Notes: a model not told the origin generated them from the letters alone. A stretch of DNA of 53,177 nt from Phycisphaerales bacterium (GCA_039679715.1 JBDKUM010000235.1:1-53177); one strand, 5' to 3'; positions 10,876 through 49,537 are shown, counted from the first letter of the stretch. Program-made: numbers and translations.

Positions 10876-11305
10876 AGGGTAAAGGTATAAGGTATAAAAA
10901 GGAAAGCTGAACTTCCAAGGTCTCAATGTAAAAAATTTTTAATTACCACAAATCAAACTTATCAAACAAAAATAACAGAGCCGGCAGCACAGCGGCAGAT
11001 AAAAGGAAAAATTAAATATTCCCAGTCGTAAAATACGCCGGGTTATTTAGTTTACTTTTTCCCAATCACGGTAAAAGTGTCGGGTTCTTTAGTTAGTTAA
11101 TTTTTCCCAGCCACGATAAAAAGTGCGGGGTTCTTTACTTAGTTACTTTTGCCGGTCACGATAAAAAGTGCCGGGTTCTTTGCTCTAATAACCCCGCTGA
11201 TTGAATCGCGGGCTAAGTTCTGTCGTTTTTGGGCTCGGCCAAAGACTGCCAGACTCTGTCAAATTTAAACGCGCATTAGATTTATACCCTATGACCTTCT
11301 ACCCT
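10876..11305 (-). ncRNA. Candidate ~430-nt structured non-coding RNA, family not recognised
   Basis: No ORF; nested long-range stems (11281-11305 with 10876-10898; 11246-11260 with 10974-10987) enclose five similar hairpins; G-U pairs favour the minus strand. Confidence 0.6.
11021..11212 (-). repeat. Five tandem bulged hairpins at 40-46 nt spacing
   Basis: Units at 11021-11042, 11061-11084, 11106-11130, 11152-11174 and 11193-11212 with A-rich linkers mostly ending in GAAC. Confidence 0.85.
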
Positions 11306-11321
11306 TAGGCGGAACTTGCGC
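11295..11321 (-). promoter_or_regulatory. Motif GCGCAAGTTC-N4-TAAGGGTAGAAGG shared with the portal-gene upstream region
   Basis: 22/27 identical to 49511-49537 with the same spacing. Confidence 0.5.
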
Positions 11322-11631
11322 GAATTTTAATGAAATTAGTGAAATTTTTTTTCGGATTTTTTGTAAGCGGCTGTCAAATAATACCAATTGGCATTATTAC
11401 TCCGCGTCGAGAGGTTTGTAAGTCATTGAGTTAAGCGGAGCTTAAGCTTCGCTTAAGCCGCGGACAACTTCTCCCCAAGGGACGCTACGCGGAGTATTTT
11501 TGGGATCCGTATAAAAATGAATTTTTTTTTGGAAATTTTGAAATCGCAAGTTTTTACCTGCGCGATTTTGCTAAATCAGATTTTAAGAGGTCGCCTTAAA
11601 TTCAAACCAAAATTAAAAATTCCAATTTACT

Positions 11632-11961
11632 TTATAAATCAGCTGCTTCAGATTTTCGGATCTCACCTTCGATTCGGTTTTTGCGGTCCCAAATTATTAA
11701 ATATGTTGTCAGGCGTATATGCGCCCATATTTTCATCAACGCGATATTTACAACTCCGACGACTGCTAAAAATAATCCCAAAAACAATTTTCTTATTTGA
11801 CTATCATTTGCGTTTAGAATCATACTAAGGCCGTCGAGTGTGATAAAGACTGAAATAATTAAAAAAATCCAATAAGTTATTTCCGTCTTAGTTACTTTTT
11901 TGAGAATGTCTTCGCACGTTGGCTGCTCCTCAAAAGCTTTTGCCCAATTAAAAAATCTCAT
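11632..11961 (-). CDS. Small hypothetical membrane protein (2 TM)
   Basis: Two hydrophobic segments; ATGA overlap with the upstream DUF2089-like gene. Confidence 0.7.
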   Translation of the reverse strand: MRFFNWAKAFEEQPTCEDILKKVTKTEITYWIFLIISVFITLDGLSMILNANDSQIRKLFLGLFLAVVGVVNIALMKIWAHIRLTTYLIIWDRKNRIEGEIRKSEAADL

Positions 11962-12269
11962 ATATTTTTCCCTTCATTATTTAAAGTTTCTTCATGTATT
12001 TTTAATAACGATTTTGCTGTAGCTAAATCAATTTTCCCTTCGATCACGAGCACTTGCAGTTTTTGGTGAAATTTTGATTTAGTTTTTTTTGAATCCAGGA
12101 TTTGTATTTTCTCGATCAGACGATTTAGTTTTATTCTGATAGTAGGATATGTAATAGTATATTGCTGCGCAACGTCCTTAAGCGAACCTGAAGCCAAAAG
12201 CAGCCTTTTTATAAATTGCCAATCTTCTTCATTTAAGCCTTTTGCCCAATCCGGAATTGTATTTTCCAT
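11958..12269 (-). CDS. DUF2089-family HTH protein
   Basis: LNEEDWQFIKRLLLASGSLK..YPTIRIKLNRLIEK pattern. Confidence 0.8.
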   Translation of the reverse strand: MENTIPDWAKGLNEEDWQFIKRLLLASGSLKDVAQQYTITYPTIRIKLNRLIEKIQILDSKKTKSKFHQKLQVLVIEGKIDLATAKSLLKIHEETLNNEGKNI

Positions 12270-12397
12270 CTTACAGCCTTCAATTATATACTTTAATAAT
12301 AGTAAAATACACTTTAATTTTATTAAAGCAAGAGAAATATTAATAAAATTAAAATAAATTTCAATTTTGTTAAAGAAGGGATTATTCGGTAAGCAGC

Positions 12398-13762
12398 TTA
12401 TTTCGTCATTTTCAAATCACTAATTACTATTCGATGATCAGAATTTATGGTCTTTTTTGCGTAAACAGCAATTGGCGAGTATTTATCATTTGCCCAGATT
12501 TGGTCTATTCTGAATAGCGGGACTGTATTTAAAGCGGTATGTCCCCAGCCGGTGCCGGCCTTGTTAAATGTGTCTTTAATGTGAGTTTTCAAAGCTTTAA
12601 GACAGCCATCATTTGAGGAAACATTAAAATCCCCGCCGAGAATTATGGGGGTATTTTTTGGAATGTTTTTAAGCTGTTCTGCAATGATGGCGACTTGTTT
12701 GCGTCGGGATTTCCTGTCATCAGCATGATTATGCCAGCAATCTGGCGAAAATAAATTTATATTAGCAACCGGCGGCTCAAGATGAATCGAAAATATATCA
12801 GTTTCAATTCCATTTTTCAATTTCGCATGAACCTGCGTAACAAACAAACTTTTAGGTTTTGAAAATTCGATTTTTTCAAATTTGCCATTTGCTATTATAG
12901 CTGTGTCTGCATCATAAGCGATTGCTGAATCGGAGCCAAAAAGCTTTGCGGCAAAATTCTCTAAAACTTCTTTTTTGGTTGGTATTTCCTGAAGTAAAAG
13001 GATATCAGGATGCAAGGGGATTACCTCCTGCATTGTTTCTGGATTTCCACCAAGACAATTTAAAGATATGACCCTCAATTTATTTTCCGCAGGTATCGAT
13101 TGCCATTCTTCATTTGAAACAAAAAATTGTCTTATGAAACTTCTCGGCTCATCTGCAAAAATAAAAAAGAAAACAGCCCATAATTGAATCATTAATATGC
13201 AAAATCTTTTGTTTAAAAATCGAATTAAGAGGGAAATAATTATGCCAGCTAAACCCCACGACCACGCAGGGAAAAAGGTCATTGCGGCCAAACTGTCGGG
13301 CTTTAAACTGTAAGCAAATGTCAGAAAAACCATTAACAGAAGAGAGATAGCAAAAGCTGCTTTTCCAATGAAAGGAAATTTTACTGATTTCATTTTTCTT
13401 TTTTGAAGGTAAAGAATTTTGTTGTCCTCAATCAGGAAAAAATCATTTTTCAGTATATTACCATTATATTTTATTCGGGTGAAATCTTTATTTACTTCGC
13501 ACGTTCCTTCATCAACGATTTCAGCGGTGCCGGTGTTTTTGTTGACAGGGCCTTGATACGTGAGGAATTTTTTATCGTGATCCTGGATTGGTGTTGCTTT
13601 GGTTTTTACAGGGTTTAACTTGTCGGAGTCTCCTGCTAATTTTTCAGGCGGATTTTCCAGTCTCCATGTTTTTAAAACATCTCCGTCTTCTATCATCAAA
13701 TCCCAATGAATATCATCTCCGCGGGTGTGTTTGTGAATAACAAACTGTCTCTGATTATGCAT
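12398..13762 (-). CDS. Apparent fusion: LigD-type 3'-phosphoesterase domain + 3 TM + EEP (endonuclease/exonuclease/phosphatase) domain
   Basis: FVIHKH..HWDLMIE..LKTW..DH...LTYQG N-terminus; LLQE, GGDFN, RIDQIW and SDHR in the C-terminus. Confidence 0.75.
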   Translation of the reverse strand: MHNQRQFVIHKHTRGDDIHWDLMIEDGDVLKTWRLENPPEKLAGDSDKLNPVKTKATPIQDHDKKFLTYQGPVNKNTGTAEIVDEGTCEVNKDFTRIKYNGNILKNDFFLIEDNKILYLQKRKMKSVKFPFIGKAAFAISLLLMVFLTFAYSLKPDSLAAMTFFPAWSWGLAGIIISLLIRFLNKRFCILMIQLWAVFFFIFADEPRSFIRQFFVSNEEWQSIPAENKLRVISLNCLGGNPETMQEVIPLHPDILLLQEIPTKKEVLENFAAKLFGSDSAIAYDADTAIIANGKFEKIEFSKPKSLFVTQVHAKLKNGIETDIFSIHLEPPVANINLFSPDCWHNHADDRKSRRKQVAIIAEQLKNIPKNTPIILGGDFNVSSNDGCLKALKTHIKDTFNKAGTGWGHTALNTVPLFRIDQIWANDKYSPIAVYAKKTINSDHRIVISDLKMTK

Positions 13763-13790
13763 ATTGCAAATTTTTAATTGTTAATTCTTA

Positions 13791-13933
13791 AAGGTGCCAC
13801 TAAAAATTATTTTTTTATCATTCGAAAGGTTTGGGCAAGATGGAATAATCACTTTTTTAAAGGATTTCTCCACTGCGCTGCGCTCCGGTCGAAATGACAT
13901 TTTCACGTTTATCCAATTTTTAGATGTTGCCTT
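13791..13933. repeat. MITE-like element with terminal inverted repeats and internal REP
   Basis: aaggtgccactaaaaatt ... aatttttagatgttgcctt enclosing gatttctcc..cggtcgaaatgac. Confidence 0.65.
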
Positions 13934-13972
13934 AATTTTGAATTAATTAAATTTAAAATTCAAAATTTAAAT

Positions 13973-14971
13973 TTATCCGAGCGTCTGAATTGCAGTAATC
14001 GCTACTGCGGCGACGATATCATCGCTGTTACAGCCGCGGGACAAATCGTTTACAGGTTTTGCGATACCCTGAAGAATTGGGCCGTAAGCGGCGTAACCCG
14101 CAAGTCTTTCGGTCATTTTATAACAGATGTTTCCGGCTCCTAAATCAGGGAAGATGAAAACATTGGCCTGACCTTTTACCGGACTGCCGGGAGCTTTTTT
14201 AGCAGCAACCTTTGGTACAAACGCCGCGTCGAATTGCAGTTCTCCGTCAATCGCATACTCGCCATCGAATTCTTTTTCGAGTTTGGCTTTGGCAAGTTCA
14301 GTTGCCTTTATCATTTTATCAGGGCCTGTGCCTTTGGCCGAACCTTTTGTTGAATATGAAAGCATCGCGATTTTCGGAACGAGGCCGAATTGTTTTGCTG
14401 TACGAGCTGTAGTCAATGTTATATCCGCAAGCTGCTCTGCTGTCGGGTCCTGGTTCAATCCAGAATCAGCGTACAGCAGTGTTGTTTCGCCTTTTGTCAT
14501 AAAGAACATGCTCGAGACTGTCTCAAGGCCTTTAGCTGCCTTGATTATTTGCAATGCAGGGCGAACGGTATCTGGTGTAGAATGAACGGCGCCGCTGACA
14601 AGGCCGTCGACTTCGCCAGTCTTGACCATCATTGTGCCGAAATAAACTTCATCTGTAACTATTTTTAGAGCGGCTTCGGGAGTGACTCCTTTGTTTTTGC
14701 GAAGTTCATAAAATTTTTCCGCGTATTCTTTTGTTTTGCTGCTTGTTTTCGGATTGATGATTGTGATGTCTGCTGTGTTTGCCCCCATTTTTTTAAGCTC
14801 GTTAGCGATTTTATTTTCATCGCCAATAATTGTGAGCTTTGCCATTTTTTTATCGGCTATTTTCTTAGCAGCCTCAATTGTCCTGGCATCATCGCCTTCC
14901 GGCAGAACAATATGCTTATAAAGAGAGGCTGCTCTTTCGAGTATCATTTGTGAAAAATCTTTTGTTGTCAT
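13973..14971 (-). CDS. pta: Phosphate acetyltransferase
   Basis: IVLPEG, LSYSTKGS, IDGELQFDAA, FPDLGAGNICYK and NDLSRGC motifs. Confidence 0.95.
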   Translation of the reverse strand: MTTKDFSQMILERAASLYKHIVLPEGDDARTIEAAKKIADKKMAKLTIIGDENKIANELKKMGANTADITIINPKTSSKTKEYAEKFYELRKNKGVTPEAALKIVTDEVYFGTMMVKTGEVDGLVSGAVHSTPDTVRPALQIIKAAKGLETVSSMFFMTKGETTLLYADSGLNQDPTAEQLADITLTTARTAKQFGLVPKIAMLSYSTKGSAKGTGPDKMIKATELAKAKLEKEFDGEYAIDGELQFDAAFVPKVAAKKAPGSPVKGQANVFIFPDLGAGNICYKMTERLAGYAAYGPILQGIAKPVNDLSRGCNSDDIVAAVAITAIQTLG

Positions 14972-14992
14972 AATAATTCCTTGTAAAAAAAA

Positions 14993-15064
14993 TAGCCACT
15001 AAGACACCAAGGCACAAAGAAAATTAAATAACAAAATTTTAGTGTCTTAGTGCCTTTGTGGCTA
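14993..15064. repeat. Inverted repeat of 8-bp-period units; possible terminator of the tRNA transcript
   Basis: tagccactaagacaccaaggcacaaa ... tttagtgtcttagtgcctttgtggcta; a single arm recurs at 28064-28088. Confidence 0.7.
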
Positions 15065-15072
15065 AAAATAAT

Positions 15073-15146
15073 TACGCCCGACAGGAGTCGAACCTGTAAC
15101 CTTCGGCTTCGTAGGCCGGCACTCTATCCAATTGAGCTACGGGCGC
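15073..15146 (-). tRNA. tRNA-Arg (anticodon ACG), CCA not encoded
   Basis: GCGCCCGTAGCTCAATTGGATAGAG...CTACGAA...GGTTCGACTCCTGTCGGGCGTA cloverleaf. Confidence 0.96.
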
Positions 15147-15276
15147 AAGTAAACCAGTATTCTACAGTTAATCTCTTATTTTGCAAGCAGGAAAAAGACT
15201 AAAAAATAACCAATAATCAAGGTACAAATTCCAATTTTGGAAATTGGTATAAACATAGGAACTTGGTTATTGGTGA

Positions 15277-15564
15277 TTACACTCGGTGCATCATTTTGAA
15301 GATGGATTCGTCCTGGAAGTTGATTTTCAGCTTCATTTCCTGGGCTATTTTATCTAATATTTTGTGGATTTGCGGAATAGTAATTGTCGCTTTGGCGATA
15401 TCGCATGCCATTGTCATAACGAAATAGTTTTCCATAATTTTCTGGTTCACATCAACGATGTTGATGTTTGCTTTTGCCATAGCGATCGCAAGGCGGGCGA
15501 TAATACCGACCCTATCTTTTCCAGTAACCGTACAAATGCAAATCTGACTTTTTTTCGCAGCCAT
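15277..15564 (-). CDS. ACT-domain protein (UPF0237-like)
   Basis: TVTGKDRVGIIA, NINIVDVNQ and IFKMMHRV motifs. Confidence 0.88.
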   Translation of the reverse strand: MAAKKSQICICTVTGKDRVGIIARLAIAMAKANINIVDVNQKIMENYFVMTMACDIAKATITIPQIHKILDKIAQEMKLKINFQDESIFKMMHRV

Positions 15565-15575
15565 TTCAAATCCCT

Positions 15576-16322
15576 TTAATCGAATTTATGCTGATGAAGT
15601 TTTTCCAGCGTTTTATAATCGGTCATATCGAAACCAAGCGATGTTATTGTAATGTAGCCGTTCATCAATGCCAGTGTATCTGTGAGTATATCCTTATCGC
15701 GATGTTCGCCGCTGGCAAGCTGATAAAGTGTCTGACCTGTTTCGCTTTGCGTTTTCACATATCGTTCATCGAAGCCCAGCGTTGATTGCGGCACTATTTT
15801 GAATCCTTTGGGCTTGCCTTGCGAAAGTGCGGGTATATTGATGTTTATCACGCCATGATAATTAATCGGCAGTAACTTTTGCAAAACATCGATGGAATGA
15901 ATTGCCGCGTTTTTAAAATCTGTAATCTCTTCATTTACTGTACTCAAGGCCACCGCAGGTATGCGATAAAATGCCGCTTCCATTGCCGCCGCCACGGTTC
16001 CGGAATAATAAACATTTATTCCGACATTTGCGCCGTGATTGATGCCGCTAACAACAATGTCCGGCTTTTTCGTGCAAAGTTCCATTAATGCCAGTTTTAC
16101 ACAATCGGCAGGTGAACCGCTGACGCTGTAACCTGTGAAAAGACCTTCGATTTTGATTTTTTCGCAAATTAGCGGCTCAAATACGGTAATACTGTGTCCT
16201 GCACCGCTCATGCGGTCTGAAGGAGCGACAACCGTAACATCTCCGATTTTAACAAGTTCCTTGTACGCTGCCGCGATGCCCGGAGCTAAAATTCCATCAT
16301 CATTTGTTAATAATATATTCAT
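15576..16322 (-). CDS. surE: 5'/3'-nucleotidase SurE
   Basis: ILLTNDDG, SGINHGAN and YSGTVAAAME motifs. Confidence 0.95.
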   Translation of the reverse strand: MNILLTNDDGILAPGIAAAYKELVKIGDVTVVAPSDRMSGAGHSITVFEPLICEKIKIEGLFTGYSVSGSPADCVKLALMELCTKKPDIVVSGINHGANVGINVYYSGTVAAAMEAAFYRIPAVALSTVNEEITDFKNAAIHSIDVLQKLLPINYHGVININIPALSQGKPKGFKIVPQSTLGFDERYVKTQSETGQTLYQLASGEHRDKDILTDTLALMNGYITITSLGFDMTDYKTLEKLHQHKFD

Positions 16323-16328
16323 GGTTTT

Positions 16329-16399
16329 AGTGTAAACGTAATAAGTTTAATATTCAACACAATTCGCCTGATTGACGCTTTTGCATTGGCAGGTATAAT
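16329..16399. promoter_or_regulatory. Divergent sigma70 promoters for surE and nnrE, both probably leaderless
   Basis: Minus strand TTGAAT-17-TACACT-6-ATG; plus strand TTGACG-16-TATAAT-6-ATG. Confidence 0.65.
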
Positions 16400-16405
16400 T
16401 TAGTC

Positions 16406-17107
16406 ATGATTAAGAAATTCGACATGCAAAATGACCCTGTAATGACGCGTCAGGAAGTCCGTGATTTTGACACCTATGCGATAAATACCCTGGGCATACC
16501 GGGCATTATACTTATGGAAAATGCCGGCAGAGGATGCTCTGAAATCATAATCGAAAAACTCAAAACTCTGCTTGGCTCGAAAGTCTGCATTTTTTGCGGA
16601 ACAGGCAACAACGGCGGCGATGGTTTTGTAATAGCAAGACATCTGGTAAATGCAGGCTTTGATGTTATCGTTGTTTTATGCGGAAATTCTGCGAAAATAA
16701 AAGGAGATGCCGAAGTTAATTACAAAATCGCGGCAAATATGAAAATTAATATCAGGGAATTTTTTAATGTGGAAAGTATTAAAGAACGTCTCCAGGAACT
16801 GGCAGCCGATAGTGATTTGATTGTGGATGCTATTTTCGGAACAGGTTTGTCCGGCGAATTAAAACCTGAATTTGCACAAGTTATTGATGCGATAAATACC
16901 TTAAATAAGCCTGTTGTCGCGGTAGATATTCCATCAGGGCTTGATTGCGATGAGGGAATACCGCTGAATAAAGCGATAAAAGCGACAGCGACAGTAACTT
17001 TCGTTTCTGCCAAAAAAGGCTTTTTAAACCCGCACTCACGGCATTTTACAGGCGAAGTTTATGTCGCTTCGATAGGTATCGAGCCGACGCCAACTAATCG
17101 CTTTTAG
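16406..17107 (+). CDS. nnrE: NAD(P)H-hydrate epimerase
   Basis: LMENAG, CGTGNNGGDG, DAIFGTG and AVDIPSG motifs. Confidence 0.93.
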   Translation: MIKKFDMQNDPVMTRQEVRDFDTYAINTLGIPGIILMENAGRGCSEIIIEKLKTLLGSKVCIFCGTGNNGGDGFVIARHLVNAGFDVIVVLCGNSAKIKGDAEVNYKIAANMKINIREFFNVESIKERLQELAADSDLIVDAIFGTGLSGELKPEFAQVIDAINTLNKPVVAVDIPSGLDCDEGIPLNKAIKATATVTFVSAKKGFLNPHSRHFTGEVYVASIGIEPTPTNRF

Positions 17108-18536
17108 CTGCTAAAGATTCATAACCTGTGAAGTTTAAAAATCTCTTAAGATTGAAAACCGGTATATACAAATCTTTAGCTTGTTCTTTTGTTGCTTTAT
17201 ATTTATCAGCGTTCTTTAACGATGCTTCGTATTTTTCATTTGCCAGCGGATCATTTTCGATATCATCGAGTGTGGGCTTTTTCTTTTGCTGAGGTTCGTT
17301 GCCCAAAACAACGTAATCGGTGTCGATTGTTACAGTATCTTCAACCTTGCCGCCCCAATTTTCGATGAGCTGTGCGATTTTCGTTTGTGCGTCTGAATCA
17401 ATCTGGCCGTCGCCGTTGAAATCAAAATCGCCCGCTATGACGAATCTATTTACCGCTTTGCTGTCCCAAATGAGATTTATTATTACATCACCTTCAGCAA
17501 CGGGATTGCGTTTGCTTGAATTTACGATTCTTGCGGTCGCGGTGTTTTGCGAAACATCGAATATCTCGATTTCACCTTTGCTTGAACCATCAGTTGGAAT
17601 TGGTGCGCTTCTGTCGTAGACCGCGAAAGTCAGGCCCGGATAAACTTTGCTTTCACTGCCGATATCTATGAAAACTATATTCGATTGAATATCAACAGAG
17701 ATAATGTGCCCATCTTGATGATACGCTGCGACGTCTTCTCTAGGCCTTGGTTTATAAACTTCCAGCTTGCTAAGAGCGTCCTGCAATCTGTTTTGTGTGA
17801 TTTGAAGATTGCTCATATTTTCCAGCAATTCCTGCTGGCTTTTATTTTTTGCATCGATAGCTTCATCACGCTGCTGCATAAGAGCCTGAGTCTGTTCATC
17901 TGCTTTCTTGGCCATCAGGTCGCGAAGCTGATTATAACTTTGCTGAACGCTGTTTGCGTCTTGCCTGACTATATTAAGCTGTGCGAGAAGCTCCTGCTCT
18001 CTATTCATTGCGCCTTTTTTAGAAGTATCAAAGTCGTCGTTAAGCTTTGCGATTTGCTCGTCCAACTTTTCAATAGTTGAGTTTTTCTGCTCCAGCTTGT
18101 TGTGATAAATATCGACTATTCTGAAAAGTCCCGGTGCGTTGATATCGTTTGGTGCTGTTGTTATATCGAATTCTTTCGGAAGCTTTGCGAGAATGTCGTT
18201 GAATTTAGATTGCAACTCAATAACCTTTGCCTCAGCGCTGGTTTCCTGTGGTGCAAGGCCGGTTTCCATTCGGTACACATTATCAAGATAACTGATAAGC
18301 TGACGGACTCTGCTGTCCTGACCTGCTTTTTGCCCGACGAGATTCCCAAGATTTGAAACCTCATTGGATTTAGCAACTTCTTCAAGCTGCTGCTGGCTTT
18401 GTGCAAGCTGATCCCTGCTGTCTTCAAATTTGATGTAAAAAATTACAGCCGCTATAGCTGCGATAATAAATAAACCGACAAAAACGATAGCTGTGTATAG
18501 CATGGTGCTGCTTTGATCCTGACGAGCTACTGCCAT
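17094..18536 (-). CDS. Membrane-anchored coiled-coil protein with C-terminal beta domain and BRCT-like domain
   Basis: N-terminal TM; long Q/E/K-rich heptads; IENWGGKVEDTVTIDTDYVVLG resembles BRCT. Confidence 0.7.
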   Translation of the reverse strand: MAVARQDQSSTMLYTAIVFVGLFIIAAIAAVIFYIKFEDSRDQLAQSQQQLEEVAKSNEVSNLGNLVGQKAGQDSRVRQLISYLDNVYRMETGLAPQETSAEAKVIELQSKFNDILAKLPKEFDITTAPNDINAPGLFRIVDIYHNKLEQKNSTIEKLDEQIAKLNDDFDTSKKGAMNREQELLAQLNIVRQDANSVQQSYNQLRDLMAKKADEQTQALMQQRDEAIDAKNKSQQELLENMSNLQITQNRLQDALSKLEVYKPRPREDVAAYHQDGHIISVDIQSNIVFIDIGSESKVYPGLTFAVYDRSAPIPTDGSSKGEIEIFDVSQNTATARIVNSSKRNPVAEGDVIINLIWDSKAVNRFVIAGDFDFNGDGQIDSDAQTKIAQLIENWGGKVEDTVTIDTDYVVLGNEPQQKKKPTLDDIENDPLANEKYEASLKNADKYKATKEQAKDLYIPVFNLKRFLNFTGYESLAAKSD

Positions 18537-18701
18537 TAAAAAATCTCCTGAATATATATTAATATGAGTTCAGTACTTACGTTTCTTCTAAGATAAAGTA
18601 TTATCGGCATATAATGGTATTTAGTCAACAAAATTTTACCCAAATTCTCAAACTTATATTGGCGTAAGTGCTTGAATGTTAGTATAGTTATATACCGATT
18701 C

Positions 18702-23313: not shown

Positions 23314-23579
23314 ATATCAGCCTCTGCCATGAAAGATATGATGCATTATATAGTCATTTCATCCTATAAATATTTAATTCTGATTTACTTTTCAATTACT
23401 TTTATCACACTTTTTATCGCTTTCTGGATACTTATGGACTACTTTTTGACACTTTTTGAACACTTATTTCACACTTTTTTTCGCTTTTTTCACACTTTTT
23501 TGTGTCATTTTACATCGTTTTTTTTCAATTATGCGCAAGTTCCGGCAAAAATGCGCATGATAATAACTGCATCAGTTTG

Positions 23580-27148: not shown

Positions 27149-27153
27149 GTATA

Positions 27154-28065
27154 ATGAATTTAATAGAGAAAATTAATAAACTGCGAAAAGAAAGAAACGC
27201 AATAATACTTGCGCATAATTATCAAAGTGGTGAAATTCAGGATATAGCCGATTTTACAGGCGATTCGCTGGAATTGAGCAGGAAGGCGGCTGAAACAAAA
27301 GCTGATGTGATTGTTTTCTGCGGGGTTTTATTTATGGCGGAAACGGCATCTATTTTATCTCCTGATAAAACTGTTTTACTGCCTGATAAAACCGCCGGTT
27401 GTCCAATGGCGGATATGATTACGGCCGGGCAGCTTGCGGAGCTGAAGGGCAAATACCCTGACGCGGTTGTTGTTTGTTATGTAAATAGTTCGGCAGAGGT
27501 AAAAGCTATAAGCGATTATTGCTGCACAAGCTCGAATGCGGCGGAAGTTGTAAAGTCGATCGAAGCGGATAAAAAAATAATTTTTGTGCCTGATAAAAAT
27601 CTGGGACAGGTTGTTAAGGAAAGAACGGGCAGAGATTTGGTGCTTTGGCCGGGATATTGCCCGACACATCATTTTGCTTCAGCAAAAACAGTAACGGAAA
27701 CCAGAAATGCGCATCCGGAAGCGATGATTTTAGCACATCCGGAATGCCCGAAGGAAGTAAGGGATATAGCTGATATTCTTCTTAGTACTGGTCAAATGTT
27801 GAAATATGTTAAAACAAGCGATAAAAAAGAATTCATAATTGCTACGGAGATTGGAATTATTCATACGCTGAAAAAACAAAATCCAGAAAAGATATTTTAT
27901 CCGGCGAGCGAGCGTTTTGTTTGTCCGAATATGAAAAAGGTCACACTGGAAAAAGTTTTATTTTCGCTTGAAGATAACAAGTATGTTATTAAGGTGCCGG
28001 ATGAAATCACATCTAAGGCAAGAAGGGCATTAGAGCGAATGGTAGCGGTATTACCAAGAACGTAG
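27154..28065 (+). CDS. nadA: Quinolinate synthase
   Basis: LAHNYQ, GDSLELS, CGVLFMAE, YVNS, AHPEC and CPNMK motifs. Confidence 0.96.
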   Translation: MNLIEKINKLRKERNAIILAHNYQSGEIQDIADFTGDSLELSRKAAETKADVIVFCGVLFMAETASILSPDKTVLLPDKTAGCPMADMITAGQLAELKGKYPDAVVVCYVNSSAEVKAISDYCCTSSNAAEVVKSIEADKKIIFVPDKNLGQVVKERTGRDLVLWPGYCPTHHFASAKTVTETRNAHPEAMILAHPECPKEVRDIADILLSTGQMLKYVKTSDKKEFIIATEIGIIHTLKKQNPEKIFYPASERFVCPNMKKVTLEKVLFSLEDNKYVIKVPDEITSKARRALERMVAVLPRT

Positions 28066-41751: not shown

Positions 41752-41864
41752 GAAAAATGGGTACCCCGCTTCGCTTATGGGTTTCTGCTACGCTACAACA
41801 GGCACATATAAATTATTCGCTAAGTGCGTTGAACGAATAATTTAATGAGCCAGTCCCCATTTTT
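41752..41864. repeat. Family B element carrying a ~33-bp insert
   Basis: gggtac[cccgcttcgcttatgggtttctgctacgctaca]acaggcac...gagccagtcccca. Confidence 0.75.
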
Positions 41865-41923
41865 CCTCGATGCGCGGCCGTCTTGGCGGCGGCTAAACGA
41901 TGTGGAATGCACGCCCAATTTTC

Positions 41924-43294: not shown

Positions 43295-43313
43295 AATATG
43301 TTCCTAATATCAT

Positions 43314-43925
43314 TTACCATGCGACAGTTTTGTTAGAACCTCGTTTGCCAATCAGCACTTCATTTTGCCAGAATCTAAGACCTGTTTTAAGGTTTGTAAC
43401 TTTCAACTCAAAATAATATTCAACCTGTTGTTTGTGTTTATCATAAGTTAGATTTCGCTGGAAAATTTTACCAGTCATACTTAATTCAGGAGCAATAATT
43501 TGTCCTTGTTTCGGAAGAGTGTCCTGGTTAAATTCCTCCCCCCTTGAAGAGTCGCGAACATCCCTCAATCCATAAACAGTATCATCGCGGTTAGAAGCTG
43601 TGCCTCCGACAGCGGAAGTCATGACAACAAGGCCGCTATTCATAAGGTCTTTTTCGATTTTTGCTGTGAGCTGCTCTGTATCGATTCGCTGCATTGTGTC
43701 GTTAATAATAACGCCAGTGGAAAGCACATATCTACTGCCATCGGTTTTGGCAAGTACTCCCGATTCAATCAGTGATTGTATGCATTGACTGGCTGCCTGG
43801 TCGAAATCCCTGTAATCAAGCGACATGACCTGTTTGCCCTGATCGTTGACGGTGTCGATTCTCTGGACATCATTACAACCGGTTACCATAAGAGGTATAA
43901 CAAACAGAAAAAAAAGTTTTTTCAT
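43314..43925 (-). CDS. lpoB: Penicillin-binding protein activator LpoB-family lipoprotein
   Basis: Lipobox VTGC; INDTMQRIDT; YYFELKVTNLKTGLRFW. Confidence 0.75.
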   Translation of the reverse strand: MKKLFFLFVIPLMVTGCNDVQRIDTVNDQGKQVMSLDYRDFDQAASQCIQSLIESGVLAKTDGSRYVLSTGVIINDTMQRIDTEQLTAKIEKDLMNSGLVVMTSAVGGTASNRDDTVYGLRDVRDSSRGEEFNQDTLPKQGQIIAPELSMTGKIFQRNLTYDKHKQQVEYYFELKVTNLKTGLRFWQNEVLIGKRGSNKTVAW

Positions 43926-43940
43926 TTTACAATCCTTTCA

Positions 43941-44384
43941 TTAATTTGGTGTTGGTCTTGTATTCATTCTGAAATCGACAGCATCCCGTGATGGGGCAAC
44001 GGTTTTGAAGCTGAAAATGCTTCTTGATTTTGCGAAAATCGTATTCCAAACGGCTGCCTTGGAATCAACGCTAATTCCATTTGCATCAATCCAATCGACT
44101 TTGTAATCGAAGCTTTTATTGTAGACAGCACGGTTGTGGCCTGTTACCTGTATTTCGAGAAAACCGGCTTCATTTTTGAAAACTTTGACATCTTTCAAAT
44201 CTATTCCATACCCGACTAATAAGGTAAATGCGCCGTAAACAGGACGTGTTAAAATATTATCAGCGAGGGTGCTTCTGGATACGCCGCTTGATACGGTTAC
44301 CCTGTCATCTTTGTATGGTTCGTTGCAACCATTAAGAAGAAAGACAGAGGTGGTATAAAATAATAGCAGAAAATACTTTTTCAT
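43941..44384 (-). CDS. YcfL/DUF1425-family lipoprotein
   Basis: Lipobox LNGC; YKVDWIDANG; APSRDAVDFR. Confidence 0.75.
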   Translation of the reverse strand: MKKYFLLLFYTTSVFLLNGCNEPYKDDRVTVSSGVSRSTLADNILTRPVYGAFTLLVGYGIDLKDVKVFKNEAGFLEIQVTGHNRAVYNKSFDYKVDWIDANGISVDSKAAVWNTIFAKSRSIFSFKTVAPSRDAVDFRMNTRPTPN

Positions 44385-44408
44385 ACAGATACTCCTTAAA
44401 AACGTTTT

Positions 44409-45794
44409 TTATAATGGGATTACATTGTAAATTGGTTTTGTATTTTTGTTAATAATTTTTATATAAATAATAGTTTTTTCCGAATCGGGCAACTCGATAT
44501 CGAAAGGCTGGCCATTAAAGGGCGTTATTGTAATTGTTTTATTCTGTGGTATGTCAAATTGGGCAATCTGGAATTCTTTGGGTAGTGCAGTCCAAATCCT
44601 TACATCAGCGGCAGTTGTAACAAATGAATATGCCGCAATCATGATAGTGCCAACTGTGGCGGCGGTAGAATCCTGCTGTGAGACGGCATATTGAGCAACG
44701 GCTTTTGCTGTCGCTGAAATAATTGTTCTTATCAGTATAATTTCAAAATCCTTTTTGAATTCACTTTGTATGATTTTTTCCATATCACAAACAACAGCTG
44801 TCTCGTACATATTTGCATCAGCATTGATTTGTAAACAGGAAAATGCAATATCTCTGTTTGTAAGCTTTGGCAGAGCTATACCAGCATAAAGAACTCTGGA
44901 AGTAGCAATAAAAAGCGGTAAATCAATTCTGAATTCATCCTTTACAGGGCCTAATCCATTTTCATATATAACCCAAACAGAATTTTTCAAAACATCCTGT
45001 TGCGAGAGTAATTCATCAGTTTTCTTAAATTCTTCTTCTACATATTTATTTGCGGGGACAAGGCCATGGGTTTCTTTTAACAAATCCCTGGCAATTGCCG
45101 GTTCTCCAACAGAATTAAAATAAATAGAGGCGACGTAGGTGACAAAAGGATTGATGTAATCTTTGTAAGGCTGATATTCGTTAAGCTGCGGGTAATTCTG
45201 ACACAAAGCTTTTTGAAAATTGTTGCTATCGATGCTTTTTTGAGCCAGGTTACTATATGTCGCTTTGTTGATGTTTTCCTTTTGCTTGCTAATTTCATTT
45301 TCAAATTTTTCTTTTGTTCTTCGAAGGCGGTCGATTGCCCTGTTGAATTCGACGCGTGCTAAATCAGATTTTTTTTCACAAAGAAAATTGAGGGCTTTGT
45401 ATGTATTTGTCATGACTCCATCGTATTCGGCGCCTTTATAAGGCATGATATTATCGTTTACAGCGACAGCAGAGATTTCATCTCCAATGGATGATCGGGT
45501 ATCGTAGTATTTCAAATGATTTTCGGCATTGTCAAAGAATTGGGTGCTGGCATTGTAATCCTGTAAATCTCTTTTTATGGAAGCTGCCTGCAAAGCCCAA
45601 AGCAAGTCTTCTCCTGAAGGATTTTTGCCTTTTTTGATTTTTGTTTCGGCGAAAATAAGAGCTGAATTAAAATCCGAGGCCTCGTAGTACTTGTTGAAAG
45701 CTATAAGCTGTTCTTTGGGGATATTGCATCCGCAAATTGCCGGCAACCATGCGGCCGCAAGCAAAATCATAAATCTCCTAAGCATTCTGCTCAT
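44409..45794 (-). CDS. COG3014-type helical lipoprotein
   Basis: Lipobox ICGC; Y.GAEYD, ARVEFNRA and ADVRIWTALP motifs; usual neighbour of ycfL-lpoB. Confidence 0.75.
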   Translation of the reverse strand: MSRMLRRFMILLAAAWLPAICGCNIPKEQLIAFNKYYEASDFNSALIFAETKIKKGKNPSGEDLLWALQAASIKRDLQDYNASTQFFDNAENHLKYYDTRSSIGDEISAVAVNDNIMPYKGAEYDGVMTNTYKALNFLCEKKSDLARVEFNRAIDRLRRTKEKFENEISKQKENINKATYSNLAQKSIDSNNFQKALCQNYPQLNEYQPYKDYINPFVTYVASIYFNSVGEPAIARDLLKETHGLVPANKYVEEEFKKTDELLSQQDVLKNSVWVIYENGLGPVKDEFRIDLPLFIATSRVLYAGIALPKLTNRDIAFSCLQINADANMYETAVVCDMEKIIQSEFKKDFEIILIRTIISATAKAVAQYAVSQQDSTAATVGTIMIAAYSFVTTAADVRIWTALPKEFQIAQFDIPQNKTITITPFNGQPFDIELPDSEKTIIYIKIINKNTKPIYNVIPL

Positions 45795-45930
45795 TTAAAT
45801 CCATCCTCCATAATATAGTAGAGGTATAATATCATAAAATATATGAATATCAAGGGAAAATCCTCTTGAATATTTTAAAATTTTATATCTAATTTCTAAA
45901 GTAAGCCAAGGTTTGTTTGAAGGATAAATT

Positions 45931-46761
45931 ATGAGATTTTTATTTTTATTGTCGATTGGAATGATGGCTGCGTTTATTTCCGGCGGATGTTCTGTAAATC
46001 CTGTAACGGGTGAGCATCAATTAATACTAGTAAGTCCCGAAGAAGAGAAAAAGATGGGACTGGATTATTCCAAAGAAGTTGAAAAAGAACTCGGAGCAAG
46101 TTTTAAAGATGAGCAACTGCAAAGTTATATCAATTCAGTGGGGCAGAAAATCGCGGCTGTAAGCCATGTGCCGGATTATGGTTTTAACTATAAGGCGATT
46201 GATTCGAATACGGTAAATGCATTTGCGATTCCGGGCGGATATATTTATATAACAACGGGATTGCTGGCGCAGTTGAATAGCGAGGCGCAAATGGCCGGTG
46301 TCTTGGCACATGAGACTGCGCATGTTACAGCGAGGCACATTGCAAATCAAATTACAAGGAGTACTTTGATTAATATAGGCTTAACGGCAGCGAGCTATAA
46401 AGTTCCTACCGGCGGAGTGAAAATCGCGGGTATAGTTGCGCAATTGGAAAGCATGTCTTTTTCGAGGTCACAGGAAAAGCAGGCAGATGAAGTTGGGCTT
46501 GGTTATCTTGTTAAAGCAGGATACACGCCTAACGGAATGGTAGAGACAATGGAAGTTTTGGAACGTCAAAGCCAATCAAGGTCGATAGAATTTTTCTCGA
46601 CGCATCCCAATCCTGAAAATCGTGTAGCTTTATTGAAAGAACAGATATTTAATAATAGGTATCCGACAACGGGCAAGTCGGGCAATGAAGAATATGCGGC
46701 TAATGTAACAGGGAGGCTTAAATCATTAAAGCCGCAATTATTTGAGAAAAACACGCAATAG
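45931..46761 (+). CDS. M48 metalloprotease lipoprotein (BepA/LoiP-like)
   Basis: GCSVNPVTG, NAFAIPGG, HETAH, EKQAD and STHP motifs. Confidence 0.92.
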   Translation: MRFLFLLSIGMMAAFISGGCSVNPVTGEHQLILVSPEEEKKMGLDYSKEVEKELGASFKDEQLQSYINSVGQKIAAVSHVPDYGFNYKAIDSNTVNAFAIPGGYIYITTGLLAQLNSEAQMAGVLAHETAHVTARHIANQITRSTLINIGLTAASYKVPTGGVKIAGIVAQLESMSFSRSQEKQADEVGLGYLVKAGYTPNGMVETMEVLERQSQSRSIEFFSTHPNPENRVALLKEQIFNNRYPTTGKSGNEEYAANVTGRLKSLKPQLFEKNTQ

Positions 46762-47614
46762 TGTGGAGCAGAATGGTCGATTTGCTTAAAGTGAAATAGC
46801 CGTTTTGAGTCAGTTTGTCAGGGTTGGAATCAACGAAGCATTTTAAGCAGGTCAGCATGATTATTACATTCAGGATATAAGATTTAATAAGAATAAAACT
46901 CAAAACGATAATGAATACCAAAGCGGTCTTGTAAAGTAAGGCCGCTTTTTTTATGCCCAGAGTGACAACCAGTGTTCTTTTGTTGACGGCTTTATCCGCT
47001 TTGTAATCAGGGAATTCATTTGCGAAGATTACCTGGAAAATTAAAAGTGCAACTAATAGTGAAGGCAACAAAGGAATCAAATTAATTGTTCCTGTTTGAA
47101 TATAATAAGCACCGTAGACAGGCAGAATGCCGAAGAGAAATCCGATGGTAATTTCACCTGCGGTACGGTAGCCAAGTTTTAGGGGCGGGGCGGTGTAGAA
47201 CATGCCGCCAAGCAGGCCGATGAAACCTAATAATAAAATTAAAATGCTTTTGGTAATTATTACGATAATTAAACCGAGGAGCGAACCACATGCGAAAAGG
47301 ATTAATGAGCCGGTTAAAACTTCTTTTTCGGATAAAAGTTTTTTTTGGATCATCTGGCTGCCGCCAGAATAGGATGAAGGATTCTGGTTGTACCAATCAT
47401 TTTTTGAAAGGCTGTCAAAATAATCATTAATTACGTTTGAGGCCATTTGGAAAAAGGACATTGAAACGGCTGCGAGGATGAATAAGAACATATTGAAATT
47501 ATGGGTGTGCGAATAAGCCAGGGAGGTGCCGAGAGCAATCGGCAAAATACTTGCGGTACAGAATTGTATTCTGACTTCTTTTAGCCACAGAGAAAATTTA
47601 TTTATTTTAGCCAC
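46718..47614 (-). CDS. menA: 1,4-dihydroxy-2-naphthoate prenyltransferase (UbiA family)
   Basis: NVINDYFD, YTAPP.KLGYR..GE and NEFPDYKADKAVNKRTL motifs. Confidence 0.8.
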   Translation of the reverse strand: MAKINKFSLWLKEVRIQFCTASILPIALGTSLAYSHTHNFNMFLFILAAVSMSFFQMASNVINDYFDSLSKNDWYNQNPSSYSGGSQMIQKKLLSEKEVLTGSLILFACGSLLGLIIVIITKSILILLLGFIGLLGGMFYTAPPLKLGYRTAGEITIGFLFGILPVYGAYYIQTGTINLIPLLPSLLVALLIFQVIFANEFPDYKADKAVNKRTLVVTLGIKKAALLYKTALVFIIVLSFILIKSYILNVIIMLTCLKCFVDSNPDKLTQNGYFTLSKSTILLHTIACFSQIIAALMI

Positions 47615-47740
47615 AGAGACCTAAACCTATGAAACCACGAATGAACTCGAATTAACACGAATATAAAATACGAGATAAGCAATGCATGCAGTTTAACAAG
47701 GTGACGCAAAATACAAAACTATATTCTTTTAAATATGAAA

Positions 47741-48085
47741 TCAATATGAGCCGCCGATAATACTATGAAATCCTATCATGAGAAATATAAAGGTAATTAG
47801 CCACCAAATTCCGCCAAGTAAAAAGCCTAATAAAATATTTATTGTGATTTCTTTGAATAACTTCAGTTTGTACAAAGCGGCTATAAAAATAGATGACGCA
47901 AACCAGAATGTAAGACCCATAGAATAGCAATGGATATCGAATACAAGACTATCTCGACTAATTGTCTTTACTCCAATAATATCGATAATAGCAATAATAA
48001 GCAAGAGTATGAACGCAATTGCCAAAAGGACAAATAGAGAATGTTTTATTTTATATTTTTTGTCATTTATGTGGTCGTTTGTCAT
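47741..48085 (-). CDS. Hypothetical membrane protein (3 TM)
   Basis: Hydrophobic ORF with ATGA overlap to the cupin gene. Confidence 0.6.
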   Translation of the reverse strand: MTNDHINDKKYKIKHSLFVLLAIAFILLLIIAIIDIIGVKTISRDSLVFDIHCYSMGLTFWFASSIFIAALYKLKLFKEITINILLGFLLGGIWWLITFIFLMIGFHSIIGGSY

Positions 48086-48573
48086 AGATATTTTTCTATT
48101 AATGCTTTTGCGTCTGGAAATTGCATTATAATCTTATCTTTATCAGCATGCTGGTAATCTGCAAATTCAAATCCGGGGGCGACGGTACAGCCAAGGAGAG
48201 CGAAATTACCGCCGGGAAGGAGTTTTGCAGCCTGCCAGGTGTCTTTAGGGACGATGGCCTGGGGTTTCTGGTTTTCAAGAAAATTTGTTCCAAGGATTAA
48301 TGTTTGCACTTGTCCTGTTTCGGTTATTTGTAACATTTCAACGGGGTCGCCAAAGTGGAAATGGAATATTTCATCACTTTTGACCTTATGCAATTTGGAA
48401 AAGCTTGCAGGCGTAATTAAATAAAGAATCGAGGTGGAAAAACAGCGTTGGCCTTGGTACCTTTGAGGTAGATTGTTTAATAATTCATGGGATCTGTATG
48501 TTTCAATGTAATAGCCGCCTTCGTTTGGAAGGGGAATCATGTTGAAAAATTTAATTATATCTTCTGGAGTCAT
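48082..48573 (-). CDS. Cupin_5 (DUF985) protein
   Basis: EGGYY.ETYRS, TSILYL, SDEIFHFH.G and CTVAPGFEFAD motifs. Confidence 0.9.
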   Translation of the reverse strand: MTPEDIIKFFNMIPLPNEGGYYIETYRSHELLNNLPQRYQGQRCFSTSILYLITPASFSKLHKVKSDEIFHFHFGDPVEMLQITETGQVQTLILGTNFLENQKPQAIVPKDTWQAAKLLPGGNFALLGCTVAPGFEFADYQHADKDKIIMQFPDAKALIEKYL

Positions 48574-48592
48574 TGGAATTACTTGTTTTTAA

Positions 48593-48647
48593 GATTTCTC
48601 GACTTCTTCTGCTTCGCTGAAGCTACGCAGAATCCGGTCGGAATGAC
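48593..48647 (-). repeat. REP-like element
   Basis: gatttctcgact...cggtcggaatgac. Confidence 0.65.
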
Positions 48648-48657
48648 AGGTGGACGG

Positions 48658-49113
48658 TTAATCTTCTTTCAAAACAATGTTATCATATTCGAGTTCGAAA
48701 CGCAGTTTATGTTTGGCTTCCTGTTGGGCGAGAGCGGTAAAAAGTTTTTTAGCTTCAGGGTCGGGAGACTGATTTGCGAGGTCTGTATATAAAGCGAAGG
48801 ATGCTTTTTCTTTTTTCATAGCAAGAGTGATGATGTCCTGATAACTCATATCATCAGAAGGCTTTATATCAACAACATAATCCGCGATCTTTAGATCTAC
48901 TATTTTTCCACCAGTTACAATTGGATTTTTACCTTTCTTTACGTCTTCCAGAATTTTTCTATGTCCCCGCTCTTCAGCAGCGAAATTTAAAAGCACTTCT
49001 TTCATTTCTTTATTTTTAGATTTTGAAGCCAAGGACTTGTAAAAATTAGATGCGTCTATTTCATTGCCTATAGCGAAATCGAGAATTTCATCGAGAATGT
49101 TAATTTTGCTCAT
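48658..49113 (-). CDS. Ferritin-like / rubrerythrin-family diiron protein
   Basis: Duplicated E..A..FY..LA / EERGH and E.AS..LY / QEAKH motifs. Confidence 0.9.
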   Translation of the reverse strand: MSKINILDEILDFAIGNEIDASNFYKSLASKSKNKEMKEVLLNFAAEERGHRKILEDVKKGKNPIVTGGKIVDLKIADYVVDIKPSDDMSYQDIITLAMKKEKASFALYTDLANQSPDPEAKKLFTALAQQEAKHKLRFELEYDNIVLKED

Positions 49114-49138
49114 TTTTGTGCCTTTAAAAAAAATAAGT

Positions 49139-49323
49139 GAACCACTAATAATTCGAAGAATTGAGATTGCCCACCTGAGGCGGGTAATCTTCTTTCTTGC
49201 AAATACCAGAAATTACTGCTCTGTAGAAAAATATATCAAACTGAAAAATGGGTACAGGCACAATTAGCCGCTAAAGACCGCGTCTAATTGAGTCAGTCCC
49301 CATTTTTTCATGACATTTCTACA
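49139..49323. repeat. Family C element with nested family B element (49244-49307)
   Basis: ccactaataattcgaagaattgagattgcc ... gggtacaggcac..gagtcagtcccca ... tgacatttct. Confidence 0.65.
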
Positions 49324-49510
49324 AAACAGAATAATTGTACAATAAAATGGATAAAAATCCAACATTATTATCATTGATTCAAATAAGGCAATTTCTCTAA
49401 ATGCGCAAGAAAATACCCTCACGTAAATTATTCTAAATTATTTTTCATTCTTATTCTACAAGCACTTACGTTCCGAAAGCAAAAATAACCTGCTCTGATT
49501 GATTATTTAT

Positions 49511-49537
49511 GCGCAAGTTCATTGTAAGGGTGGAAGG
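49511..49537 (+). promoter_or_regulatory. Motif GCGCAAGTTC-N4-TAAGGGTGGAAGG, 30 nt upstream of the portal gene
   Basis: Matches 11295-11321 (minus strand). Confidence 0.5.

Follow-up and report, generated by a model that had tools for sequence, protein, structure and literature searches.

A composite promoter/operator-like module predicted upstream of an RNA locus and of the head-tail genes of a gene transfer agent-like element in Phycisphaerae

The DNA analysed here, referred to as the window, is a contig of 53,177 nt (C235) from a Phycisphaerales bacterium (GCA_039679715.1 JBDKUM010000235.1:1-53177). It carries two copies of a 27-nt motif, one at the predicted 5' end of a candidate non-coding RNA, RNA1, and the other immediately before the portal gene of a phage-derived head-tail gene cluster. 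Alignment of the copies indicates that the motif is the 3' core of a module of about 100–190 nt with blocks at fixed spacing. The module is probably a dedicated promoter/operator that marks the regulated 'late' units of an ancient, phage-derived element resembling a gene transfer agent (GTA). An earlier note on this DNA had proposed that the RNA and the head genes belong to one system. What remains of this proposal is a dedicated, conserved cis-regulatory element common to the RNA locus and the head genes, and what finds no support are the ideas that the RNA is a part of the particle and that it pairs with the portal leader. The two core copies are as follows.

11321-11295, minus strand: core copy 1, GCGCAAGTTCCGCCTAAGGGTAGAAGG
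49511-49537, plus strand: core copy 2, GCGCAAGTTCATTGTAAGGGTGGAAGG

Both copies lie where they had been reported, are identical at 22 of 27 positions and have equal spacing. Copy 2 stands just before the portal gene, as claimed, its 3' end being 29 nt ahead of the ATG at 49567. A degenerate pattern allowing up to three mismatches has exactly two matches in the window, against a mean of 0.00 in 100 dinucleotide-preserving shuffles. The same pattern has three matches in the whole genome and none when reversed, and the third core copy (contig C183:1853-1879) is located upstream of a paralog of RNA1, RNA2. The pattern is also present in 8 of 41 related genomes, over all of which the reversed pattern gives a single match, indicating that the motif occurs far above background frequency. 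The 5' half of copy 1, GCGCAAGTTC, may be read as an operator half-site, and its 3' half, TAAGGGTAGAAGG, is -10-like and also Shine-Dalgarno-like. In agreement with the earlier note, a simple scan has found no well-spaced -35/-10 pair of the sigma-70 type over either core, and the totals of the scan are close to those of shuffled sequence (2 where 1.9 are expected, and 3 where 2.0 are expected).

The flanks of every true copy have about 60 nt further upstream in common. Read from 5' to 3', the module begins with GCGCGCAAG-N5-CTTGCGCGC, a GC-rich inverted repeat that lies about 110 nt ahead of the core; then come an A/T tract, block A, (TTG)ACAAGCACTTAC, and AATTTTCGnCAAAAAC, and last the core, GCGCAAGTTC-N3-4-TAAGGGTrGAGGG-ACA. 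The consensus of an alignment of 34 copies (A1) is CTTATnnnACAAGCACTTACG - about 20 variable nt - AATTTTCGnnAAAAAC - GCGCAAGTTC - N3-4 - TAAGGGTAGAGGG - nCA, in which TT, G.GCA, A and T.GA are invariant. Since the conserved blocks of this alignment are held at fixed spacing and the sequence between them is free to vary, the pattern is that of a DNA element read by a protein. RNAalifold predicts no base pair (0) on the 98-nt alignment of the 34 copies. Of 65 modules, 39 have a GCGCAAG-like half-site at a fixed distance (-48/-35) from the model start, compared with 7 of 65 control windows, and in 17 modules it forms an inverted pair. A sequence-only covariance model built from alignment A1 (profile R1) places the two modules of the window as follows.

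11290..11381, minus strand: module copy 1, with block A (TTGACAGCCGCTTAC), A/T tract and core; R1 E 1.1e-15
49451..49545, plus strand: module copy 2, upstream of the portal gene; R1 E 9.7e-12

Copy 1 is without the upstream GCGCAAG palindrome. Two partial copies of the motif had also been reported in the window. The one at 49401-49409, ATGCGCAAG, is present and belongs to the extended module, whereas the one at 23529-23542 is present as letters but does not amount to a module, being by itself a weak partial match to model positions 37-83.

49401..49409, plus strand: degenerate remnant of the upstream GCGCAAG element, part of the extended module
23507..23552, plus strand: weak partial copy with GCGCAAGTTC only, profile E 0.074, aimed into the 3' end of a minus-strand gene; not a full module

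Related arrangements are seen beyond the order. In L201, which belongs to another order of the class, two near-perfect palindromes of the GCGCAAA type, 24-26 bp long and about 125 nt apart, are located upstream of the portal gene with the block-A-like sequence CAAGGACTTA between them, and CCAAGGGTGGAGGG-like sequences are found in the portal upstream regions of L202 and L205 from other orders. Because of the inverted repeat upstream, the full palindromes in another order and the parallel with a Caulobacter GTA promoter described below, GCGCAAG is interpreted as a putative operator half-site.

The source assembly (4.05 Mb, 97% complete) is fragmented into 425 contigs, and so absences in the source genome are weak evidence. 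The comparison sets are 151 genomes of the order Sedimentisphaerales, 118 of them of high quality, and 201 genomes of the class Phycisphaerae. In the source genome, R1 finds six full-length copies, four of which are strong (E 1e-15 to 4e-9) and two weaker. Those outside the window are the following.

C183:1807-1886: module copy, R1 E 7e-11
C363:1443-1529: module copy, R1 E 4e-9
C176:357-438: weaker module copy, R1 E 1e-5
C300:1622-1702: weaker module copy, R1 E 1.5e-3

Five better-assembled relatives contain 11, 1, 11, 7 and 14 copies (E <= 1e-3). In the order-wide search, 81 of the 151 Sedimentisphaerales genomes have an R1 match (E <= 1e-4), distributed over the families as 23/25 (f1), 35/43 (f7), 17/44 (f6), 3/25 (f2) and 0/7 (f8), and the number of scored copies per genome reaches at least 27. 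R1 detects the module directly upstream of the orthologous portal gene at 31 of 39 loci from different species for which upstream sequence exists, and among the remaining ones L038, L041, L048 and L058 show diverged cores by eye, so that the conservation upstream of orthologous portals envisaged in the earlier note is borne out. The portal-upstream modules all face in the sense direction, and 22-140 nt separate their core from the start codon.

Genes of several kinds follow the module. At the 30 best loci in the five relatives, the first downstream open reading frame (ORF) in the sense direction encodes an HNH_3-family protein in 21 cases, the portal protein in 3 and an ABC-like ATPase in 1, and is short or absent in 5; many of the 21 HNH_3-family proteins carry an AP2 domain. 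In the source genome, the module stands before RNA1, before the portal gene, before RNA2 followed by a 140-aa ORF, and before an A-rich repetitive leader followed by a 137-aa ORF, which is a paralog of the RNA2-linked ORF and matches the small-terminase PHROG 2538 (E 5e-5). Two further copies lead into A-rich leaders, and the ATPase gene, split over C185 and C99, has a variant core. The expectation that the motif would precede other phage-derived genes thus holds for HNH endonucleases, small-terminase-like genes and the ATPase but not for the large terminase. No HNH(-AP2) homolog was found in the source genome by tblastn, an absence that is weak in a fragmented assembly. Either these genes have been lost in this lineage, leaving orphan leaders behind, or repeats have broken the assembly at their sites.

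The portal gene is the first gene of a head-tail cluster. The genes of the cluster that lie within the window are as follows.

49567..51090, plus strand: portal protein (SPP1_portal, E 2.7e-18), first gene of the 13-gene head-tail cluster
51113..51712, plus strand: scaffold-like protein; Pfam match below the curated cut-off, position conserved in relatives
51828..52982, plus strand: major capsid protein (SU10_MCP, E 4.2e-85)

The tail genes of the relatives are missing from the window because the contig ends at 53177. In the relatives, the portal gene heads 13 colinear plus-strand genes over about 10.4 kb. Where 10.4 kb or more of downstream sequence exists (24 loci), g01-g04 occur in 24/24, g05-07 in 21/24 and g10-11 in 21/24. 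The ten genes after the capsid gene give no significant Pfam or PHROG match in L018, and a structure search of the ESM Atlas has found that a 576-aa protein of the cluster resembles tail hubs of the gpD/VgrG type. In three species (L028, L029 and L059), the cluster is shortened to portal, scaffold, capsid and g04 followed by g13, the presumed tail genes g05-g12 being gone.

The portal gene is single-copy in 121 of the 151 genomes of the order (100 of the 118 high-quality ones) and in 118 of the 201 genomes of the class, and the identity of its product falls with taxonomic distance, from 77-85% among members of the genus to 49-62% over the order and 42-52% in the other orders. Cellular genes flank the cluster on the upstream side in the source genome, and of the 29 loci for which 4 kb or more of upstream sequence exists, 12 share the neighbours M48, UbiA and rubrerythrin on that side. 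The large terminase gene (PF03237) is single-copy in 135/151 genomes (114/118 high-quality) and lies 10-47 kb from the portal gene on shared contigs, with a small-terminase-like gene between the two in relatives. Vertical inheritance, a single copy and synteny, by which a GTA is recognised, are all found for the head-tail cluster. The single-copy portal gene with identity tracking taxonomy, the colinear cluster, the linked terminase and the candidate regulator together suggest that the cluster bears the signature of an ancient, vertically inherited and domesticated phage element of the GTA type.

Two side observations concern the terminase. In the source genome (G000), the lone large terminase gene has a bacterial RNase P RNA (RF00010, 288 bits) directly upstream of it (L134:868-1284, minus strand, corresponding to C99 ~27529-27945), and by eye the same conserved sequence is also seen before the terminase gene in the congeners L135, L136, L138 and L143. 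A second, different large-terminase-like frame (TerL_ATPase, E 1.4e-30), which may derive from an ordinary prophage or a contaminant, is present on a 2.8-kb contig of the source genome (C90:534-1046, minus strand).

A protein of 125-142 aa with two helix-turn-helix (HTH) units in tandem, each similar to sigma region 4, is encoded by a single-copy gene in 107 of the 151 genomes of the order, and in many of the 107 this gene shares a contig with the terminase and portal genes and lies between them or close by. The protein matches Sigma70_r4, Sigma70_r4_2 and phage antiterminator Q in Pfam and PHROG, mostly below the curated cut-offs; the score for antiterminator Q (PF06530) is 18-21 bits with a cut-off of 26, the weak similarity lying in the C-terminal HTH. 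An AlphaFold2 model has a mean pLDDT of 81, and the top sub-threshold rows of the database searches are sigma factors of the extracytoplasmic function (ECF) type and HTH proteins of the KorA type. The occurrence of the protein over the families runs parallel to that of the module. Among the 151 genomes, 73 have both the module and the protein, 8 the module only, 34 the protein only and 36 neither, a co-distribution that is confounded by phylogeny and by detection limits.

These data show the motif, the module and their distribution, the sequences that follow the module, and the conservation and linkage of the phage-derived genes. From them we infer that the module works as a promoter/operator, which protein is its regulator, that the units are co-expressed, where transcription starts and that particles are produced. 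The GCGCAAG elements would be operator sites for a dedicated HTH regulator, for which the tandem sigma-region-4-like protein is the best candidate, and RNA polymerase would start at or just downstream of the core. The units bearing the module would then be switched on together, namely the portal-scaffold-capsid-tail cluster, the HNH endonucleases, the ABC-like ATPase operon, the small-terminase-like paralogs and some leaders without an ORF. RNA1 would be one such unit, made up of the module and a leader in which a stem followed by a U-run encloses repeated bulged hairpins; this build resembles that of the leaders of HNH and small-terminase-like genes elsewhere. The 3' half of the core consists of the -10-like TAAnnnT, a G-rich stretch and a conserved ACA, suggesting a putative transcription start site just 3' of the motif. 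Such a start fits the minimum of about 22 nt to the start codons and the 5' hairpins that begin a few nucleotides later in some leaders.

Several established promoter types were considered and either rejected or set aside. A sigma-70 housekeeping promoter would require a -35/-10 pair 16-18 nt apart, which is not found over either core. The large terminase promoter, TTGATT-N17-TGGTATAAT, shows that housekeeping promoters are canonical in this lineage, and yet no such pair covers the core, which argues for a dedicated promoter. A sigma-54 promoter would show a GG and a GC doublet at -24/-12, some 10 nt from each other; inspection of both strands of the 34-copy alignment shows no conserved GG...GC pair at the proper spacing, and an ECF promoter on either strand was likewise rejected on inspection of this alignment. 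A promoter for a single-subunit RNA polymerase of the T7 type, suggested by the end of the core (...GTAA|GGG), was dropped as well; PF00940 was not found in the source genome, a weak negative in that the control was silent in all 14 control genomes. Terminator-like sites are not enriched in the module leaders (8/62 against 5.1 expected from shuffles), and a general antitermination model was accordingly set aside, leaving it as a minor possibility for RNA1 and RNA2 only. Pairing in RNA between block A (CUUAC/CUUGG) and the core (GUAAG/CCAAG) was rejected in view of the 0 pairs in RNAalifold; the two changes in the L042 group that look compensatory are at odds with L031-L037, L033, L036 and L046, as judged by eye.

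A number of observations weigh against a promoter/operator read by the tandem-HTH protein. If TAAGGGT is the -10 element, the nearest -35-like sequence, TTCGACA, is about 19-20 nt away. In at least three portal loci that fall at the margin of the order or beyond it (L201, L207 and L055), the homologous CCAAG(G)GTGAGGAG is located 8-9 nt before the start codon, where it behaves as a ribosome-binding site, so that in these loci at least the 3' half must be transcribed. Long hairpins span the core in a few copies (L128, L116 and L104). R1 does not find the module in 14 large-terminase loci. It does not find one for the regulator in 16 regulator loci either, the single match (L154) being upstream of the neighbouring ATPase gene, and in 9 small-terminase-like loci it detects only the paralog in L173, the syntenic small-terminase-like genes being without a module. 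All domain matches of the source genome's own tandem-HTH protein are below the curated cut-offs, and structure and sequence searches with this protein (Foldseek, PDB) give no match at E <= 1e-3; it stands as the best candidate for the dedicated regulator on the basis of its linkage and the confounded co-distribution. As for transcription, the metatranscriptome contigs within RNA1 described below are compatible with it without being proof, since they may come from carried-over DNA.

RNA1 has no ORF, and its features in the window are as follows.

10962..11294, minus strand: RNA1, about 300-330 nt; 5' end inferred
11259-11246 with 10986-10973, minus strand: closing stem, ACAGAGUCUGGCAG with CUGCCGGCUCUGU
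11212-11192, minus strand: first enclosed hairpin
11175-11152, 11130-11106, 11084-11061 and 11042-11021, minus strand: four tandem bulged hairpins, about 46 nt apart
10972-10966, minus strand: U-run after the closing stem

The predicted fold has a dG of -97.5 kcal/mol (z -3.97), and the tandem hairpins have in common a CCC/GGG base, a CAC/GUG top, a bulged purine and U-rich loops. RNA2, the paralog on C183 that precedes the 140-aa ORF, shares with RNA1 the closing stem and an identical 19-mer and contains a single hairpin of this kind (z -4.1), and both RNAs end in a stem and a U-run. No Rfam family was found for RNA1 or RNA2; for the RNA1 locus there is no match at the gathering threshold or at E <= 10, phage packaging RNA (pRNA) included. 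The earlier note had made the RNA a candidate particle component, as a pRNA-like molecule or as cargo. This idea is not supported by the distribution of the two partners: the head genes are found throughout the order and the class, and 5/5 congeners lack the RNA1 locus in the syntenic intergenic region behind the gltD-like gene. Neither are the RNA and the head genes co-distributed. Among 60 relatives searched, the signature 19-mer is exact in the source genome only, its two-mismatch matches number about 22 against about 13 for the reversed-pattern control, and none of the 19 loci with near-matches examined has a module nearby. BLAST of RNA1 against 150 genomes of the order returns short motif pieces only, and the flanks of the RNA1 locus diverge from those of G001 right after the gltD-like gene. 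The proposed pairing of the RNA's 3' strand with the portal leader is not supported either, since the segment in question ('CCUUUACCCU' at 10885-10876) lies about 80 nt past the U-run, beyond the predicted 3' end of the RNA, and nothing corresponds to it at the paralog.

In G005 and G009, HNH genes have leaders with arrays of analogous hairpins, AACCCCC-arm-loop-arm-GGGGGCUAA, whose arms differ in sequence and are complementary. These arrays make RNA1 best seen as an orphan unit of module plus leader, apparently a young, lineage-specific insertion rather than a conserved particle component. RNA1 might act as a regulatory or decoy RNA. In the metatranscriptome X2, from the study of the probable source sample, contigs cover 11082-11169 and 11140-11251, and also 10043-10260 of the neighbouring gene. 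They cover neither the module (11278-11411) nor the region 3' of 11082, which is no evidence of absence, and libraries X3 and X4 give short unlike pieces only.

The distribution of the copies allows another explanation, in which the module is mainly the conserved 5' part of a cassette that moves or duplicates, consisting of a free-standing HNH homing-endonuclease gene and its leader, RNA1 being a decayed cassette without the ORF. The likeness of the copies would then come from recent spread and not from co-regulation with the head genes. The many copies per genome at non-syntenic places, often contig ends, the 21 of 30 best copies that precede HNH_3 paralogs, the absence of the RNA1 locus from the syntenic site in the congeners and the likeness of its hairpin array to the HNH leaders of G005 and G009 all point this way. 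On the other hand, the module precedes the single-copy, syntenic portal gene in 31/39 loci of the order and is recognisable in other orders, implying that this copy is ancient and has been kept by selection. Its block-wise conservation with variable spacers of fixed length is unlike the uniform similarity of recent copies, no terminal repeats or target duplications can be defined, and no remnant of an HNH ORF follows RNA1. The cassette is therefore considered unlikely as the explanation of the module, and it is compatible with the promoter/operator in that a cassette could carry the same promoter.

Alternatively, the motif may act in RNA, transcription starting upstream and the purine-rich 3' half (UAAGGGUGGAGG) serving as a leader element, namely a ribosome-binding, standby or protein-binding site, the pairing between RNA segments included. 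The homologous sequence at Shine-Dalgarno distance from the portal start codon in L201, L207 and L055 fits this explanation, as do the cores embedded in long hairpins in some copies (15 bp in L128; L116, L104) and an imperfect inverted repeat, seen by eye, that joins 11307-11280 to 10905-10876. However, the 34 copies show neither consensus structure nor covariation, and in Sedimentisphaerales the core lies at 22-140 nt from the start codon with a separate GGAG beside the ATG. Inspection reveals no consistent upstream ORF after the core, and the conservation continues for 60-140 nt upstream through A/T tracts and palindromes, fitting recognition of DNA. In addition, the pairing segment is past the U-run of the RNA and missing at the paralog. 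An action at the RNA level appears improbable.

Small-terminase and HNH proteins are partners of the terminase in some phages, and the association of the module with genes of both kinds, together with its many dispersed copies, raises the idea that it is a packaging site of the pac or cos type or a replication site of the phage-derived element, scattered over the chromosome. Every copy examined is, however, in the sense orientation shortly upstream of a gene or a structured transcript, and the terminase genes are without the module, so that such a site is highly implausible. That the two window sites are alike by chance, a caveat that the earlier note had attached to its all-against-all comparison, is refuted by the shuffles, the reversed-pattern controls, the R1 copies, the 81/151 genomes and the 31/39 portal loci, and deserves next to no credence.

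The promoter/operator has its closest parallel in the GTA promoter PgtaT of Caulobacter crescentus, which has an upstream activator site at -123 to -113, a site for integration host factor (IHF) and a GC-rich palindrome between -35 and -10, and is activated by GafY/GafZ and IHF (PMC11150451). In both systems, a domesticated head-tail cluster lies behind a long composite promoter region, which is here predicted from sequence, with an element more than 100 nt upstream, an intervening bendable or IHF region, a weak core and a GC-rich palindrome beside the core. Likewise, a sigma-factor-like HTH regulator, here a candidate, is encoded elsewhere, and accessory loci are, here putatively, co-ordinated with the main cluster. 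Unlike PgtaT, the module occurs in 4-27 or more copies per genome, mostly before HNH endonuclease genes, its host belongs to Planctomycetota and not to Alphaproteobacteria, and it is known from sequence alone; the motifs are unrelated in sequence and so are the proteins, as far as tested.

Other known systems share single features with the one proposed here. The module would hold a regulator-binding element inside a promoter, RNA2 is a structured, terminated leader ahead of a small-terminase-like gene, RNA1 is likewise a terminated transcript, and the candidate regulator is weakly similar to Q in its C-terminal HTH, with PF06530 and PHROG 79 as the tests. These features recall the lambdoid promoter PR', where the antiterminator Q acts through a regulator-binding element inside the promoter and a short terminated leader RNA precedes the late genes. 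The Q matches are nevertheless below the cut-off (18-21 against 26 bits), leader terminators are not enriched, and the portal leader in the window has no terminator. As with the pRNA of phi29, a structured non-coding RNA is present in a genome with portal and capsid genes, but RNA1 is 38 kb from the portal gene, about 300 nt long, built of tandem repeated hairpins, without an Rfam match and not co-distributed with the head genes. Sponge small RNAs of the CsrB/RsmZ type have repeated hairpin protein-binding sites with GGA loops. RNA1 resembles them in its near-identical tandem hairpins and in the occurrence of the same hairpin type in mRNA leaders (RNA2 and the HNH leaders of G005 and G009), and differs from them in that its hairpins have a CCC/GGG base, a CAC/GUG top, a bulged purine and U-rich loops and that the family is restricted to single genomes.

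To our knowledge, few GTA families have been described, and most of what is understood of their regulation comes from Alphaproteobacteria. A tentative extension of the promoter/operator reading is that Phycisphaerae possess a GTA-like element in which the head-tail cluster, the expanded HNH(-AP2) nucleases, the ATPase operon and the small-terminase paralogs form one regulon under a promoter/operator of about 190 nt and a linked tandem-HTH switch. The co-induced nucleases would cut the chromosome to feed packaging, and ORF-less RNAs such as RNA1, with their arrays of bulged hairpins, would act by titrating an RNA-binding factor of the system. The literature searched, largely records without full texts, yielded no account of such an element in Planctomycetota, and the phage of PMC10945688 is extrachromosomal and unrelated. 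One short motif leads to a putative regulon, a candidate regulator and a predicted class-wide domesticated phage in Planctomycetota. For annotation, the module would explain a repeated intergenic element of up to 27 or more copies per genome, and the 'ncRNA' calls for caution, as it appears to be a young, genome-specific transcript and not a conserved particle RNA. In cultured members of the class with complete genomes, the module offers a direct handle for experiments; the portal and terminase genes are present in several single-contig genomes, among them G031, G037, G042 and G192.

Some minor observations concern the leaders and the neighbouring genes. At three sites of the source genome (C363:~900-1440, minus strand; C176:440-700, plus strand; C300:1700-1950, plus strand), the module is followed by a second GCGCAAGTTTTTTTTGATGTAAAATGACA element and then by about 150 nt of A-rich GAAAAGTG-type repeats without an Rfam match; one of these leaders stands before the small-terminase-like 137-aa ORF, one is ORF-less and one is 450 nt before a SIR2_2 gene. 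A long hairpin of CACnAAGn units with a period of 8 nt (GCCACCAAGACACGAAGGCAC ... and its complement) recurs in leaders of L107, L109, L010, L114, L125 and L171, in C363 of the source genome and also behind some genes, which gives it the look of a common terminator or of a repeat that binds a protein. Behind the ABC-like ATPase gene that follows the module in L106, a gene at 2185-2937 (plus strand) matches the phage PHROG 'ABC transporter ATP-binding subunit' (E 1e-15), and the pair of ATPase gene and second gene adjoins the candidate regulator gene in the genome of L106 and in G003. In the window, a DUF2089 HTH gene and a 109-aa ORF (11632-12269, minus strand) adjoin the RNA1 locus. This pair may share the lineage-specific insertion of RNA1, because G001 has a different small membrane-like ORF there. 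The sole Rfam and ARAGORN match in the window is a tRNA-Arg (ACG) at 15072-15147 on the minus strand.

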